Source: Isurus oxyrinchus (taxonomy: Eukaryota). From it: a stretch of 64,000 nucleotides of DNA. Of the stretch, positions 43,901 to 54,600 are shown one piece after another (position 1 is the first letter of the stretch; every line of letters begins with the position of its first letter). The translations under genes and the position numbers were made by a program. The notes beneath the pieces are model-generated. The model had not been told where the DNA came from. It made no database searches and saw only the letters and a list, made by a program, of their open reading frames with translations. The stretch is taken from assembly GCA_026770705.1 (NCBI GenBank), contig JANJGN010000029.1, forward strand, positions 10,230,001 to 10,294,000, read 5' to 3'.

Positions 43901-44858
43901 TAAGGGAATTAAATGTAATATCTCCAAATTTGCAGATGACACAAAGCTGTGTGGGAGGGTGAGCTGTGAGGAGGGTGCAGGGATGCTTCAGTGTGATTTG
44001 GACAAGCTGAGTGAGTGGGCAAATGCATGGCAGATACAGTATAATGTGGATAAATGTGAGGTTATCCACTTTGGTAGCAAAAGCAGGAAAACAGATTATT
44101 ACTTGAATGGTTATAAATTGAGAGAGGGGAATGTGCATCGAGACCTGGGTGTCCTCATACACCAGTCGCTGAAGGTAAGCATGCAGGTGCAGCAGACGGT
44201 AAAGAAGGCAAATGGTATGTTGGCCGTCATAGCGAGAGCATTCGAGTATAGGAGCAGGGATGTCTTGCTGCAATTGTACTGGGGCTTGGTGAGACCACAC
44301 CTGGAACATTGTGTGCAGTTTTGGTCTCCTTATCTGAGGAAGGATGTTCTTGCTATAGAGGAAGTGCGACGAAGGTTTACCCGACTGATTCCTGGGATGG
44401 CGGGACTGACATATGAGGAGAGATTGAGCCAATTAGGATTATATTCTCTGGAGTTCAGAAGTATGAGGGGGGATCTCATAGAAACCTATAAAATTCTAAC
44501 AGGACTAGACAGGGTAGATGCAGGAAGGGTGTTCCCGATGGTGAGGGAGTCCAGAACCAGGGGTCACAGTCTGAGGATATGGAGTAGACCATTTAGGACT
44601 GAGATGAGGAGAAATTTCTTCACCCAGAGAGTGGTGAGCCTGTGGAATTCGCTACCACAGAAAGTAGTTGAGACCAAAACATTGTATGTTTTCAAGAAGG
44701 AGTTAGATATAGCTCTTGGGGCGAAAGGGATCAAAGGGTATGGGGAGAAAGTGGGAGCAGGCTATTGAGTTGAATGATCAGCCATGATCATAATGAATGG
44801 CAAAGCAGACCCGAAGGGCCGAATGGCCTTCTCCTGCTCCTAGTTTCTATGTTTCTAT
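40950..44858 (+). mobile_element. Near full-length CR1-clade LINE (HER1-like): ORF1 esterase domain, ORF2 APE plus RT
   Basis: ORF1 IVIGDSIVRGID...VVVHIGTND...DGLHL (SGNH/GDSL esterase). APE CLNTRSIRNK...ITETW...GGGVA. 693-aa RT ORF 42687-44768 with YLDFQKAFD, QGSVLGP, FADD. 3' tail with (tttctat) repeats. Frameshifts and stops in ORF1 and APE. Confidence 0.95.
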
Positions 44859-44989
44859 AGACTGTTCCTATGTTCTTCTATCCCAGTTTCAACTTGTGCG
44901 TGCTCTCTCTGTTGAAGCAAGTGTGCCGCTTTCGTTGATTGTAGCCAAATGGCTCCTTCAGCAGTTACAGGAGCAATATTTGGACTTGC

Positions 44990-48400: not shown

Positions 48401-49505
48401 TTCAATAAGGTGCCACACAAGAGGTTACTACGCAATGTAAGTCTCAAGAGATGGGGAGTAATATTAACATAGATTGAGGATTGGTCATTGGACAGTAAAC
48501 AGGGAACATAAACAAACAGGTCAGAGGGTTGTGCGACTTTGGAACTCTCTGCCTCGGAAGGTGGTGGAGGCGGGGTCAGTGAATATGTTTAAGGCAGAGG
48601 TAGATAGATTCTTGTTAGGCAAGGGAATCAAAGGTTATCGGGGGTAGATGGAACTGTGGAACCTGAAACACAAACAGATCAGCCATGATCTTATTGAATG
48701 ACGAAACAGGCTCGAGGGGCCTAATGACCTACCTCTGCTCCTATTTCGTATGTTCATATGTCATTTTTGGGCTGGGTACCGCAAAGATCGTTGCTTGGGT
48801 CTCAGCTATTTACAATCTCTATTAATGACTTAGAGGTTACCAAGTGTAGCATATCCAAGTTTGTTGTGAGGAGAATGCAAAGGGATCATAGACTGACTAG
48901 GTGAGCGGGCAAAGCACTGTTGACGGAATATAATGTGGGGTGGTGTGAATTTACCCACTTTAGTAGGAAAAATAGAAAAACCGAATACTTTTTTAAATAG
49001 TGAGGGACTGGATATACTAGTATTCAGAGGTGCCTTGGTGTCCTTGCACAAGAATCACAGGAAGTTAGCATATGGGTACAGCAAACAATTAGAAAAGCAG
49101 ACACTTAGGAAAGCAAATGGTAAGTTTGGCCTGTATTACAAAGGGATTAGATTACAACAACAAGGCAATTAGAATTTACATAGTGCTTTTTAAAACATGC
49201 CAGAGTGCTTCTCAAAAATGTTACAAAGCAAATTTTGACACTGAGGCACATCAGGTAATAATAGGACAGATGATTAAAAGCTTGGTCAAAGATGTAACAT
49301 TTAAGGAGGCACCGAAAAGGAAGAAAGAGGGTGGGGTGGTTTAGGGAGGAACCTTGGCGCTTTGGTCCTAGGCAGCTGGAGACATGGCTGGTGGAGCAGA
49401 ATTAGACAAGCGTAGGGATCTTGAAGGGTTATGGGGCTGACAGAAATTAAGAAGATTGGGAATATAAGAGTAAAGAAGTCTTGCTACAATTAGATCAGGC
49501 CATGG

Positions 49506-52037
49506 TGTTACAGTGCCAGCTGATGTTAGTATTGCACAAGTCAGATCCCAGCGTGAGACCTGCTTGATAGATCCTAACTTTGTTTTATTTTTAGAAACTG
49601 TGGAGGAAAGTTACTGAACAGGAGTCTGCTGATGAACTTTTAACACAAGAAATAAAATATTTATTGAACAAGAAAAATGAACAATATTACACTAGGCAAA
49701 AAGGTTGGAAAGATTTCAATACAAACACAAGAAGATGCTTCAAATTCACACTATTCCTTTACCCAGCAATATCTTTACAGACACATATAAATTTCAGGCA
49801 GATAAACAATTTGCAATATCTACCTTATACTCTAACATTCAGAGTAAGTATGAGGTACATGTGAATTAACAAGTGAACTGTGGTCAGACACACCACACTC
49901 CAAAATAAATGACAGATGTGACCAAAGCAGATTCCATAGATTTCTCAACAATCCACCCAGGCATATGTCACATTCTGAGCCAATAGGATTGATATGCATC
50001 AAATAGGATTGATATGCATCCATATTTATGTGATATAAATGACTCTTGCCTAGATTTCTCAACTTTAATACAGAAGAACATGGGATTTTTCTTACTCTTC
50101 TCCATATTTGCAATGGACATCACGTAAGCCTGATTGGCAACCAACTTCAAAATTATCTTTCCCGCTCATTTCTTCCATAACAGATGTCCTGTTTTCATCG
50201 CTTTGATCAACATCAGATGAATGAACTTGCACCAAAAGACTTTTTCTCCTTTCACTCAAGTCATTTTCTAGTTTATCCAAGATTTATGCTACATTCTTCT
50301 GAACACATTCATACTTTCCCTGTTGACATCTCAGGACTGGAACCTTCCTTTCCAATTCTTTCCCAAGTTTTGTTAATCTTTTCATTTAGCTCAGCAACTA
50401 CTTTAGTGATTTCAGCTGTTTTTGTTTCAGAGTCATTTGTGTAACCCTTATACAAGGTGAACAACTTCGCATGGGCATTCAGTTCATTTCAGAATCTTCC
50501 TTCCATAGTTACTGACTGTTCTTTAGACTTCCTTAATTCATTAGACCATCAATCTGTAAGATTTTCCCTGTCTGCTTTTAAATTCTGGATCCGCTCTTCA
50601 GTACCATACATCTTGTTCTTCTGGTTCTCCAAATCATATCGGAGTTCTAGAATCTCATTTCTCTTTTCACAAAGAAGTTCCAACAGTTCATCAGTCTTTG
50701 TTTTAAATTCTGCACTCAACCAACTGTTCTGGTTCACCAGCAATTCCTTCTCCTCTCAAGGCGTTTTTCACCATACTTCATAGAGACTTCTGCTGCTTGA
50801 AGTTCATGATGTTTCAACTGAAGATCTGCCTTTGTTGAATTTGGTTCTACAAGTTTATCCTTTAGATGTTTCAAGTGTTCAGTCAAGTGTTCCACTTCCC
50901 ATGGCTGATGCTCAATTGTTCTCATCAATTCTTGTTTTTCATTAGCAAACTCATCTTTCATGCATGAAACTTGGTTCTTTACACTGATCAGGTTTTCCTC
51001 CAATTGCTCGTTTTCGGCAATCAGTTTCTCGCATTTGGCCACAGTGATTTTTTTTTGGAGTTTGGTCATATCGGCATGATCAAGCACCAGCTGCTATTTT
51101 ACCGTCTCCATGAGCCAAATCATTCCCAGAATTAAGTCTACCCCTTCAATAGGTGATCTAGGAATAATTCCAACCGTAACAATTTCATTTACTTAGTCAC
51201 TTGATAAATTGACTTTACTCAAAGGAACAGGTTTATAAATGCCATGGATATCTCCTATTAACACCTCTTGCTTCATCAAACTATCTGGAACACAGATTAC
51301 ATTATCAGCCACCAGCAATGACTGATCTGCAATTACTTTTAGTATGTCCAGTTTTGCAATGGAAGCATACTATTTACATCACTTTTAGGTTCTAGCCTAC
51401 CTCCTCTATTATTTTGGCATCCTCCTGTCTGCTCCCTAGAACCTTTTCCATCGCCAGGTTTTCTATTCCTCCAATTTCCTTGCTGATTCCCATTTGACCA
51501 TTTCCCCACGTGTAACTGTCTGCGTGAGATATCATAGGTACCAGCCAAAGCTGCCGCTTCTTGGATCTTTGATACTTGATGCTGATCTAAATAAGTCTTA
51601 ATGGTTACTGGAATGCAATTCTGGAATTCTTCCATGATCATAATTTCCCTCACGTTCTCAAAAGTTTTCTCTAGCTTCAGCGATCGAAACCACTGATCTC
51701 ACAGCATTTCTTTTTCCCTCGCAAATTCTACAAATGTCTGATTAGGTTTTTTTCCTTGTGGTCCTAAGCTTTATTTGATAAGATTCAGGGACAAGCTCAT
51801 AAACTTGCTTCATCAAACTGTCTGGAATACAAATTACGTTATCAGCCACCAGATCATGACTGATCTGCCATAGTCTACAAATTGGTCTTCTGACAGACTA
51901 GTGTACACATTCATATCTGTACCTGACAGGACACTTTGTAACATTAAGGTCCAAGCATCTTTTGGCCACTTCAACTTCACAGCTGTCTTTTCAAATGAGG
52001 TGAAATACCTTTCAACTCCATCCTCTGTAAACTTTGG
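49506..52037 (-). mobile_element. Decayed Ty3/Gypsy-type LTR retroelement (gag, CCHC, partial protease, captured TPR segment, probable 3' LTR)
   Basis: PKFTEDGVERYFTSFEKTAVKLKWPKDAWTLMLQSVLSG; YELVPE; EEFQNCIP...EAAALA; CFHCKTGHTKSNC; PIEGVDLILG. LTR-like end ...TAACA at 49506 with a minus-strand AATAAA near 49660. Interrupts an older CR1 remnant. Confidence 0.8.
50340..51000 (-). pseudogene. TPR: Intronless, disabled fragment of the nucleoporin TPR N-terminal coiled coil, inside the Gypsy element
   Basis: EKQELMRTIE...NSTKADLQLKHHELQAAEVSMKYGEKRLE / [31 protein letters not shown] / KEQSVTMEGRF*NELNAHAKLFTLYK..DSETK parallels recalled vertebrate TPR ([42 protein letters not shown]...NELNAHIKLSNLYK). 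One frameshift near 50754; stops at 50549 and 50489. Confidence 0.85.
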
Positions 52038-53994
52038 TCAAGTCATGCTGCCTGATTTCTTTCTCTCTTTGAGGGGATAGGAGAGACTGAGTAGACCAGG
52101 CCTACTTCTATAATTTAGAACAATGTGAGATGATCTCATTGAAATCTATGAAACTCTTAAGGGGCTTGACAGATTAGATGCTAGGAAGACATTTCCCCTG
52201 GCTGGGGAGTAAAAGTCTCAGCATCACTGTCACAGAACAAGGGTTGACCATTTAGGACAGAAATCAGGAGAAATTTCTTCTCTCAAAGGCTTGTGAATCT
52301 TTGGAATTCTCTACCCCAGATAGCTTTGGATGTTCAGCCATTGAATATTCAAGACAAGGATCAATAAATAACTAAGGGAAGTAATGGATTTGGGGATGGT
52401 GCTGGAAGTGATGTTGAGGTAGAGGATCAGTCATGATTTTGTTGAAAGGCGGTGTGGGCTTGAAGGGCCCAATGACCTACTCCTGCTCCCATTTCTTGTG
52501 TTCTTATATTCAGCCCTACAAGATCTCTGCGCACCTCCAATTCTGGCCTCTTGGATATCCTGATTTTCTTACCCTTCTGTCGCTCCTTATGCTGCTTCAG
52601 CCCTGAACTCAGGAATTTCTTCCTTTAGCTGCTCTGCGTCTGGACCTCTGTTCCTTTCAGAACCCCTTAGAGGTCTTGGCTAGGTCTTTGGTCATTTGCC
52701 CTAATATCTTCTTATGTGACTGAGTGTTAAATTTTAATTTGATAATGTCCTTTAAATGCCTTGGGACATTTTGCTATGTTAGAGTCACCGTACAAATGCA
52801 AGTTGCTGTTGTGTAAGAATGACTTGGTTGTATGTATGAGCGACTTGGGAATGTGTTGTGTGAGAGTGGTTTGGTGTATGGGGAGTGGTTATTTGGAAGT
52901 GGCTGTTCATATGAGTGACCGAGCTGGGTAATTAGAGGGGAGTGTTTGAAGTGCTTTTAAATTGGTTAAGCTGACAGAGACTGTACATTCTGAGCCATGA
53001 AGACGCCAGGCTTGGACCTCAATCTGTGCAGAATTGGCTAAAGTCACCTGGGCTGCTGTAGAATTGATCTCAGCACCTCCAGGCTCACCAGAGGACACTC
53101 AACCAGCATTTGATCCCCTCACTACTATCTTTTGTGTATGTGGATTCGGGGTAAGGATAGAGTCCAACTTGCCAGTTAAACAGCCTCCCTTAAAACTGTC
53201 TATGCTCACATAATGAGAAGCGGCATTCTACTTGCAAATGTGCCACTGTGTTGATCAGATTAAATCAGTACCTTAAGAAGAGGAAGCTTTGGTGTTCACA
53301 GAAAATCATCCATAGAACCATAGAAAAGTTACGGCACAAACAGCAGCCCTTTGCAGACATCTTTTCTTCTGCAGCCACTCTGCATTAGAGAAGGTGATGG
53401 CATAGTGGTGTTGTCACTGGCCTTATACTCTAGTAAACATAGGGGAGTAGGTTCAAATCCCACCAAGGCAGATGGTGAAATTTATAATCCAATGAAAATC
53501 TGCAATTAAAGGTTGAATGATGTTAAAAACCCATCTAGTTCACAAATATCAATTAGGGAAGGAAATCTGCTGTCCTTAACTGGTCTGGCCTACATGTGAC
53601 TCCAGGCCCACAGCAATTGACTGTCAAAATGTTCTCTGAACAAGGGCAACTAAGGATGGGCAATAAATGCTGGCCTAGCCAGTTCTGCCCACAAACAGAT
53701 AAAAAAGTAGCTGCACTATATGCCAGCCAATCATATTTTCAGCCTTATGTTGTTAATCTAAACTCCTCTTTCCATATTACTGCTTTTGAACAATTGTTCA
53801 TTATGGAGGCCAGGGGATTTGGCACTGAGTAAATACACAAGTCAGGTTCTTCAGTTCTGGCTGCCCTTTACTTGCCATTCAGTGTATCTGTGCGATCCTG
53901 TTACAGCAAGCCTGGGTGATTGTGAGTTGAATCCCATTTACAAGATGACAAGATCATAAGATCGTAAGAAATAGGAGCAGGAGTAGGCCCCTTC

Positions 53995-54600
53995 AACATT
54001 GCAGCACACCCATACTGTCTGTCCAACAGTGCAGCACTCCCTTAGTACTGCCCCTTTGACAGTACAGCACTCCCTCAGCACTGTCTCTGCAACAGTACAG
54101 CACTCCCTCAGCACTGTCTCTTCAACAGTGCAGCACTCCCTCAATACTGTCACTTCAAAAGTGCAGCACGCTCTTAGTACTACCCTTTTGACCGTGCAGT
54201 GCTCCCTCAGTACTGCCCCTTCAACAGCGCAGCACCCCCTTAGTATTGCCCCTTTGACAGTACAGCACTCCCTCAATACTGTCTCTGCAACAGTGCAGCA
54301 CTCCCTTAGTACTGCCCCTTCAACAGTGCAGCACTCCCATACTGTCCCTCCAACAGTGCAGCACTCCCATACTGTCTCCCTAACAGTGCAGCACTCCCAT
54401 GCTGTCTCTCCAACAGTGTAGCACTCCATTAGCTCTGCCTCTTTAACAACGCAGTGCTCTTTCAGTACTGCCCATCTGACAGTGCAACACTCCCTCAGTA
54501 CCACTGTCCGACAGTGCAGTGTTCTCTTGGTACTGCTCTTCTGACAGTGCAGTGCTCCTTGAGTATTGCCCTCCGACAGTGCAACACAGCCTCAGTACTG
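53995..54600. repeat. ~27-30-bp minisatellite derived from a SINE internal segment
   Basis: Unit acagtgcagcactccctcagtactgcccctt; its reverse complement matches the agtactgagggagtgctgcactgt segment of the local DeuSINE copies. Confidence 0.85.

Follow-up and report, generated by a model that had tools for sequence, protein, structure and literature searches.

At positions 49506-52037 of the 64,000-nt stretch of Isurus oxyrinchus DNA analyzed here (the window, which lies on contig C29 of a 5.0-Gb genome), the minus strand carries a damaged member of a large family of LTR elements that have acquired pieces of two spliced host mRNAs. The family occupies at least ~140 distinct loci, a count reached from 151 matches after subtraction of 8 double hits and the host exon, and displays the order LTR-gag (with SCAN and zinc knuckle)-protease-TPR-NCOA7-LTR, without integrase, reverse transcriptase (RT) or RNase H.

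Structure of the window copy and its family

The order gag, knuckle, protease C-terminus, coiled coil and LTR end, which the first-pass annotation had read from the minus strand, is borne out by comparison with other copies. The gag fragment (51334-52037, on the minus strand like all features of the element described here) includes capsid-like, SCAN and knuckle portions, is 77% identical to the gag of locus L036, matches Pfam SCAN at 51339-51698 (E 1e-6) with the domain itself placed at ~51695-51525, and shares 33-34% amino acid identity with the gag of pol-bearing relatives. Embedded within it, as seen in the window copy, is a 68-nt duplicate of a protease piece (51804-51871), 88% identical to 51333-51267. 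The CX2CX3GHX4C zinc knuckle (51329-51367) is followed at 51329 by a deletion of ~300 nt, which leaves this copy without the protease catalytic motif, and then by the C-terminal part of the protease (51108-51328), which bears a GNDLA motif at its end and has 39% amino acid identity to the protease region of a pol-bearing relative, L158 (E 1e-8). Beyond this are captured TPR sequence (50269-51107), captured NCOA7 sequence that is shortened in this copy (50012-50268), and the 3′ part of the 3′ LTR (49506-49983), which ends in ...TAACA and is 81% identical to the 3′ LTR of L036.

The copy is dead, as had been supposed. Stops and frameshifts interrupt its TPR part, no 5′ LTR or beginning of gag is present in the window, and neither the polypurine tract nor the first ~870 nt of the 3′ LTR is retained, ~1.3 kb being missing ahead of the LTR remnant. 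Dispersed repeats that flank the element (52240-52520, 48520-49130 and 44040-44860) recur in the window and at many other loci and presumably resemble CR1-type LINE ends. Elsewhere in the window, a 33-bp tandem repeat of ~18 units (53960-54600) yields, on the minus strand, an open frame of 217 codons.

A non-autonomous LTR family had been proposed, with a search of this genome for further gag-protease-TPR junctions as its check, and that search supports the proposal. A DNA search with the TPR part returned 1518 candidates, of which all 40 that were scored match (74-84%), and a search with an ORF covering the TPR end and NCOA7 gave 151 matches among 150 scored of 368 candidates. The protease-to-TPR junction is present at 25 of 30 loci, and gag lies within 1.5 kb at 14 of these 30. 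Among 20 long loci read over 10 kb, 13 have repeats on both sides (longer than 900 nt in four, 72-84% identical) and nine retain a D-T/S-G protease motif, with no match to a Pfam protease; the 16 in which the site was located mostly show a purine-rich tract ahead of the 3′ LTR. The LTR ends are of the TG...CA type, target duplications of 4 bp flank both copies checked, and a stretch that is conserved beyond the 5′ LTR could be a tRNA-Pro primer-binding site, which it resembles. The pol domains (RT, RNase H and integrase) are absent from the interior of all 20 long loci, the one RT match, at L042, lying outside the element and on the opposite strand. A putative RNase H remnant after NCOA7, recognized by eye alone, was rejected, as only 2 of 11 copies beat their own shuffles, with differing motifs, which is not significant.

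Every copy examined is broken, and these copies are old: pairwise identity is 72-88% (median 79%, 980 pairs). In a tree of 38 copies (of 61 distinct loci, with 23 left out for short coverage), the tips are long and there is one strong split (support 0.998). Near-identical contigs under a second species label cover the window locus, pieces of them running across both the protease-TPR and TPR-NCOA7 joints as well as the 5′ edge, and the insertion therefore predates the separation of the two species. One presumed-RNA data set contained short related pieces only. Pieces of the family LTR also reside in unusual positions, inverted beside gag in one copy (L005:3405-3588) and directly ahead of a shortened TPR part in another (L029:1320-1456), an arrangement that suggests nested insertion or rearrangement.

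Pol-bearing elements in this genome that display the order SCAN-PR-INT-RT-RH share 33-50% amino acid identity with the gag and protease of the family; their integrase precedes RT in L158 and L160, and an integrase zinc domain follows the protease in L099, L109 and L111. A link between SCAN and Gmr1 was reportedly drawn by Emerson and Thomas in 2011. Integrase upstream of RT marks the Gmr1 clade of Ty3/Gypsy (PMC8220671). The gag, which is SCAN-related, and the protease are related to those of Gmr1-type Gypsy elements, from which the family differs in having no pol, so that its membership of the clade is read from gag and protease. The homology of the relatives to the family stops at GNDLA, where TPR begins, and, as pol is absent, the internal ORF was replaced and not interrupted. 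A search among 37 pattern matches (30 fetched, 8 extended) yielded no close pol-bearing helper, the best pol-bearing relative having 68-72% DNA identity over the protease.

Captured TPR and NCOA7 sequences

The host TPR gene resides on contig C16, where exons 1 to 13 are separated by 12 GT-AG introns and give an open frame when spliced; residues 1-501 of its product are 93.6% identical to whale-shark TPR and 77.5% identical to chimaera TPR. The TPR part of the window copy aligns with this spliced form at 78.6% identity over 873 aligned nt and crosses the junctions into exons 4-9 without introns. Pfam Nucleoprot-TPR matches at 50549-50755 (E 2.7e-12), and tblastn with fish TPR recovers residues 81-317 (E 6e-39) plus a weaker piece at 420-496, so that the TPR search on whose failure the first-pass annotation had staked its reading gives a strong result. 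Three to eight exon junctions are spanned at 30 of 30 loci, with 77-83% identity to host TPR. The intron-free match to the host's own gene therefore indicates capture from mRNA, as had been claimed. The identification as TPR stands, and the extent first assigned to it (residues ~105-320) is too small: the copy begins in the 5′ UTR, at about -9, extends to about residue 462, and contains ~10 nt of 5′ UTR, part of exon 1, the end of exon 3 together with exons 4-9, part of exon 10, and exon 12. Host residues ~35-103, ~305-336 and ~356-418 are missing from the window copy.

TPR deletions are common to the family, with a net 201 nt lost at 17 of 30 loci, 96 nt at 21 and 186 nt at 19, and they therefore arose before amplification. 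The 96-nt deletion has a 13-nt repeat at its ends; of four deletion ends compared, strong similarity (15 of 30 nt) is seen at one, and the others have 8-11. The TPR piece does not end in poly(A).

The capture is also larger than first described, since the stretch that follows TPR, overlooked by the first reading, derives from NCOA7. The frame runs on past TPR, and a natural 146-aa ORF of copy L010 matches 26 proteins (best E 2e-10); the 10 of these that were looked up comprise seven NCOA7 or NCOA7-like proteins, two TLDc-domain proteins, one of which is a member of an NCOA7-named cluster, and one unnamed protein. At the DNA level, this piece consists of an exon end (C6:76786228-76786408) joined to the next exon (from 76788557), with the 2.1-kb intron gone. 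Positions 50268 to ~50012 of the window match the same two exons, spliced, and spliced NCOA7 is present at 20 of 20 and 28 of 30 loci in two further sets. A short sequence match exists at the TPR-NCOA7 joint, and similarity at the remaining switch points is weak. The captured NCOA7 sequence is situated upstream of the TLDc domain, the region of the protein reportedly tied to V-ATPase binding (PMC8608904). An atlas search with the NCOA7 piece gave nothing useful.

A sister family with other cargo

A sister Gmr1-type family (L166-L185; for example, C16:56821839-56822859, minus strand) appears, judging by its sequence, to have made a similar swap at the same point with two other host genes. Here the protease end is followed by a CEP152-like coiled coil and an eIF4G1 eIF4E-binding peptide, again with no integrase at that point, and all 40 scored of 375 candidates match. 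The peptide matches the eIF4E-binding region of eIF4G1 (PDB 5t46_B, E 1e-15), and its motif is found at 13 of 20 loci. The coiled coil matches a host exon (C25:20894232-20894662, minus strand) at 20 of 20 loci with 66-75% identity (tblastn E 6e-35), and this exon lies on the same strand of C25, ~20 kb upstream of the CEP63-binding exon of CEP152; the name CEP152 is given on the strength of this position and an atlas lead (0.86). A search of solved structures returned no match for L172.

Several further loci contain host-like sequence near related elements. The broken copy L199 (C3:129804504-129807605) both matches the sister family and contains the CEP63-binding part of CEP152, and is possibly a longer, earlier form of the CEP152 capture. 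Another locus (L125/L164, C16:97207137, minus strand) has an LTR end and a gag piece that are 77% and 72% identical, respectively, to those of the TPR family; a fibronectin type III match after its protease (E 0.003) could, given how weak it is, possibly reflect a third cargo. A Leg1 match (E 8e-14) ~600 nt after the protease end of L113/L162 (C6:78820409, plus strand) was considered as a multi-copy capture and rejected, as only the first 176 nt recur; it is probably an exon of the host next to a truncated element. The small contig C426 (421484-445060) and the chromosome-scale C5 (154072547-154096081) have TLDc exons that score identically and are perhaps an unmerged haplotype.

Reading frame, origin and known systems

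The first-pass annotation had inferred a Gag-PR-TPR fusion, and across the family the junction is indeed in frame. The distance from GND to the start of TPR is 30 nt at 17 of the 21 loci that have both motifs (30 examined), TPR and NCOA7 lie an in-frame 36 nt apart at 28 of 30 loci (61 examined), and natural ORFs in different copies (L008, L016, L006, L011, L021, L017, L002 and L010) extend across each joint. It had also noted that the window protease frame runs into TPR and that a frameshift would be needed to restore LGNDLA; a fused frame does exist, but the one in the window is the product of two copy-specific frameshifts that cancel out, and the family junction is directly in frame. All of the five to six joints keep the frame, an outcome with a chance of ~0.004 to 0.1 depending on microhomology bias, and in part expected, because 53-65% of high-similarity offsets in host TPR are in-frame. 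No small indel is common to more than four of 35-46 copies, and 216 of 265 indels shift the frame. Subfamily-diagnostic or near-fixed changes include 0 stops, where the decay spectrum predicts ~4.4 (P~0.01, a rough estimate). With in-frame joints and no widely shared stop or frameshift, the active element therefore probably made a single Gag-PR-TPR-NCOA7 protein. In other species, fused proteins were seen neither among 103 candidates, nor in a profile search whose 8 matches are all ordinary TPR, nor among the 10 of 26 phmmer matches looked up, all three being searches that are weak for decayed repeats.

Selection on the amino acids of TPR is weak. Its non-CpG subfamily-diagnostic changes comprise 9 synonymous and 14 missense, versus 22.6% synonymous in decay (p=0.055), and the p-value is 0.13 with CpG sites included and 0.32 in a transversion-only test; the corresponding NCOA7 changes are 3:7 (p=0.38). 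The copy-to-host dN/dS of TPR, 0.29, is largely a reflection of purifying selection on the host gene, and near-fixed residue changes number 28 on the element side versus 4 on the host side. A frequency-class dN/dS (p 5e-7 without CpG) is inflated by recurrent transitions and by synonymous changes on the host side, and its place as main evidence is taken by the subfamily test. Probably, then, the frame was kept open and the TPR sequence was only loosely conserved.

For the origin of the family, we infer a history to which we assign a probability of roughly 60%. The RT of a Gmr1-type Gypsy element would have switched template onto co-packaged host mRNAs, passing from the protease end to the TPR 5′ UTR, several times within TPR, then to NCOA7 and finally returning to the 3′ end of the element, and would thereby have replaced integrase, RT and RNase H while retaining both LTRs, gag and protease. 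A pol-bearing helper would then have copied and inserted the element in trans, at least ~140 times, in two or more waves. One open frame, Gag-PR-TPR-NCOA7, would have been kept while the element was active, probably because Gag and protease came from the element itself in cis and a long open frame was favored, via RNA stability or a self-associating tail. The coiled coil would in that case be a generic tail with weakly constrained TPR amino acids, and not a module for docking at the pore.

A less probable contender is that the host pieces were never selected at all and that the element spread by virtue of its LTRs and packaging signals, with A/G-rich coiled-coil mRNAs supplying microhomology that happens to favor the frame. 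The near-neutral missense load and the bias of microhomology toward in-frame joints fit this, and Tan et al. (2016, PMC5131818) describe captures driven by microsimilarity as common by-products. It sits poorly, however, with the five to six in-frame joints (at the odds given above), with the absence of any shared stop (P~0.01) or shared frameshift, and with the strong similarity found at only one of four deletion ends.

Somewhat more doubtful is a broader scenario in which an accessory gene repeatedly arose where pol had been in Gmr1-derived parasites of sharks and rays. Host coiled coils and short interaction peptides, such as TPR with NCOA7 and CEP152 with the eIF4E-binding peptide of eIF4G, attached to Gag-protease, would there have been selected as modules that engage the nuclear basket, the centrosome or the cap-binding machinery, winning export, translation or packaging against helpers.

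Docking at the nuclear basket itself, as first proposed, is unlikely. For human TPR, residues 435-649 are the smallest region that binds the pore, and 1-256 and 1-304 do not localize there (PMC2175216); L458 and M489 mediate binding to Nup153 (PMC3258255). As the capture stops at about residue 462, almost all of 435-649 and the position of M489 are missing, and direct pore docking would not be expected.

A related and rather improbable idea is that of a decoy, in which the fusion dimerized with host TPR at the latter's N-terminal coiled coil, weakened the retention of unspliced RNA and so helped export of the element's genome. Knock-down of TPR does increase CTE-dependent export of unspliced Gag/Pol RNA, but N-terminal TPR fragments rescued retention and did not block it in the same work (PMC3258255). 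The capture begins exactly at the TPR N-terminus, and there is a slight synonymous excess among the TPR subfamily changes; the 28 versus 4 near-fixed residue changes point the other way, as do the loss of most of the pore region and the failure of TPR 1-304 to reach the pore (PMC2175216). The centrosomal coiled coil occupying the same slot in the sister family likewise argues against a TPR-specific role. Weak support comes from a predicted complex between a piece of L012 and whale-shark TPR 90-225 (score 0.53, best control 0.00), whose runs agree in at least 97% of contacts with partner pLDDT of at least 85. The score mark was reached by 51 of 78 solved pairs and 2 of 108 mismatched pairs, but passing scores of 0.60 or less include only 5 of the 78 solved pairs and all 4 mismatches that passed, and the L012-TPR value may reflect mere likeness to the TPR homodimer. 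A solved-structure search returned no match for L021.

Finally, independent arrival of a TPR retrocopy in a dead LTR element at one site, with which the lack of a 5′ LTR and polypurine tract in the window copy would agree, is refuted for practical purposes by identical junctions at many loci on many contigs and runs against the lack of poly(A) where the TPR piece ends.

The preferred history, template switching followed by spread in trans, has close precedents. LTR-mediated capture of mRNA by microsimilarity, including multi-gene chimeras, is described in animals by Tan et al. (2016, PMC5131818), and the likenesses extend to replacement of part of the internal ORF by partial spliced mRNA without poly(A), possibly short similarity at some joints, the occasional use of more than one parental gene, and the possibility of secondary retroposition. 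The retrocopies described there are young and small in number, at 15 in fly and 3-10 in each other species, whereas the one shark chimera gave rise to at least ~140 loci, with subfamilies, and is in frame with gag-protease. The maize Bs1 element, as cited in the same source (PMC5131818), is similarly a pol-less LTR element with a hybrid ORF and pieces of three host genes; it differs in its plant host and its cargo, the shark cargo being joined to the Gag-PR of a Gypsy element within the germ line of a vertebrate. In the literature searched, which did not take in Repbase, Dfam or most subscription journals, no description of the TPR-NCOA7 family or of a like case was found.

Captures of mRNA by LTR elements have hitherto been recognized mainly as single- or few-copy chimeras and somatic oncogenic retroviruses. 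In this genome, such a capture founded a lasting germ-line family, and did so at least twice, each time with the layout protease end, coiled coil, second host peptide. How retained cargo benefits pol-less LTR elements is a question that this raises in testable form. Hundreds of TPR-, NCOA7-, CEP152- and eIF4G-like fragments are also relevant to the annotation of shark genes, and, speculatively, they could be a source of small RNAs against the genes of the same names.

Acutely transforming retroviruses, too, possess a helper-dependent genome in which spliced host sequence is fused to gag. The N-terminal 140-230 residues of TPR are oligomerization-promoting fusion partners in TPR-MET, TPR-RAF and TPR-TRK (PMC2175216). 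Unlike gag-onc retroviruses and TPR-MET, the shark family has neither env nor kinase, has spread in the germ line, and pairs a scaffold coiled coil with a non-catalytic piece of NCOA7. Overall, the family operates as known LTR capture of mRNA does, and it is in its scale, its in-frame fusion to Gag-protease and the repetition of its design that it differs.
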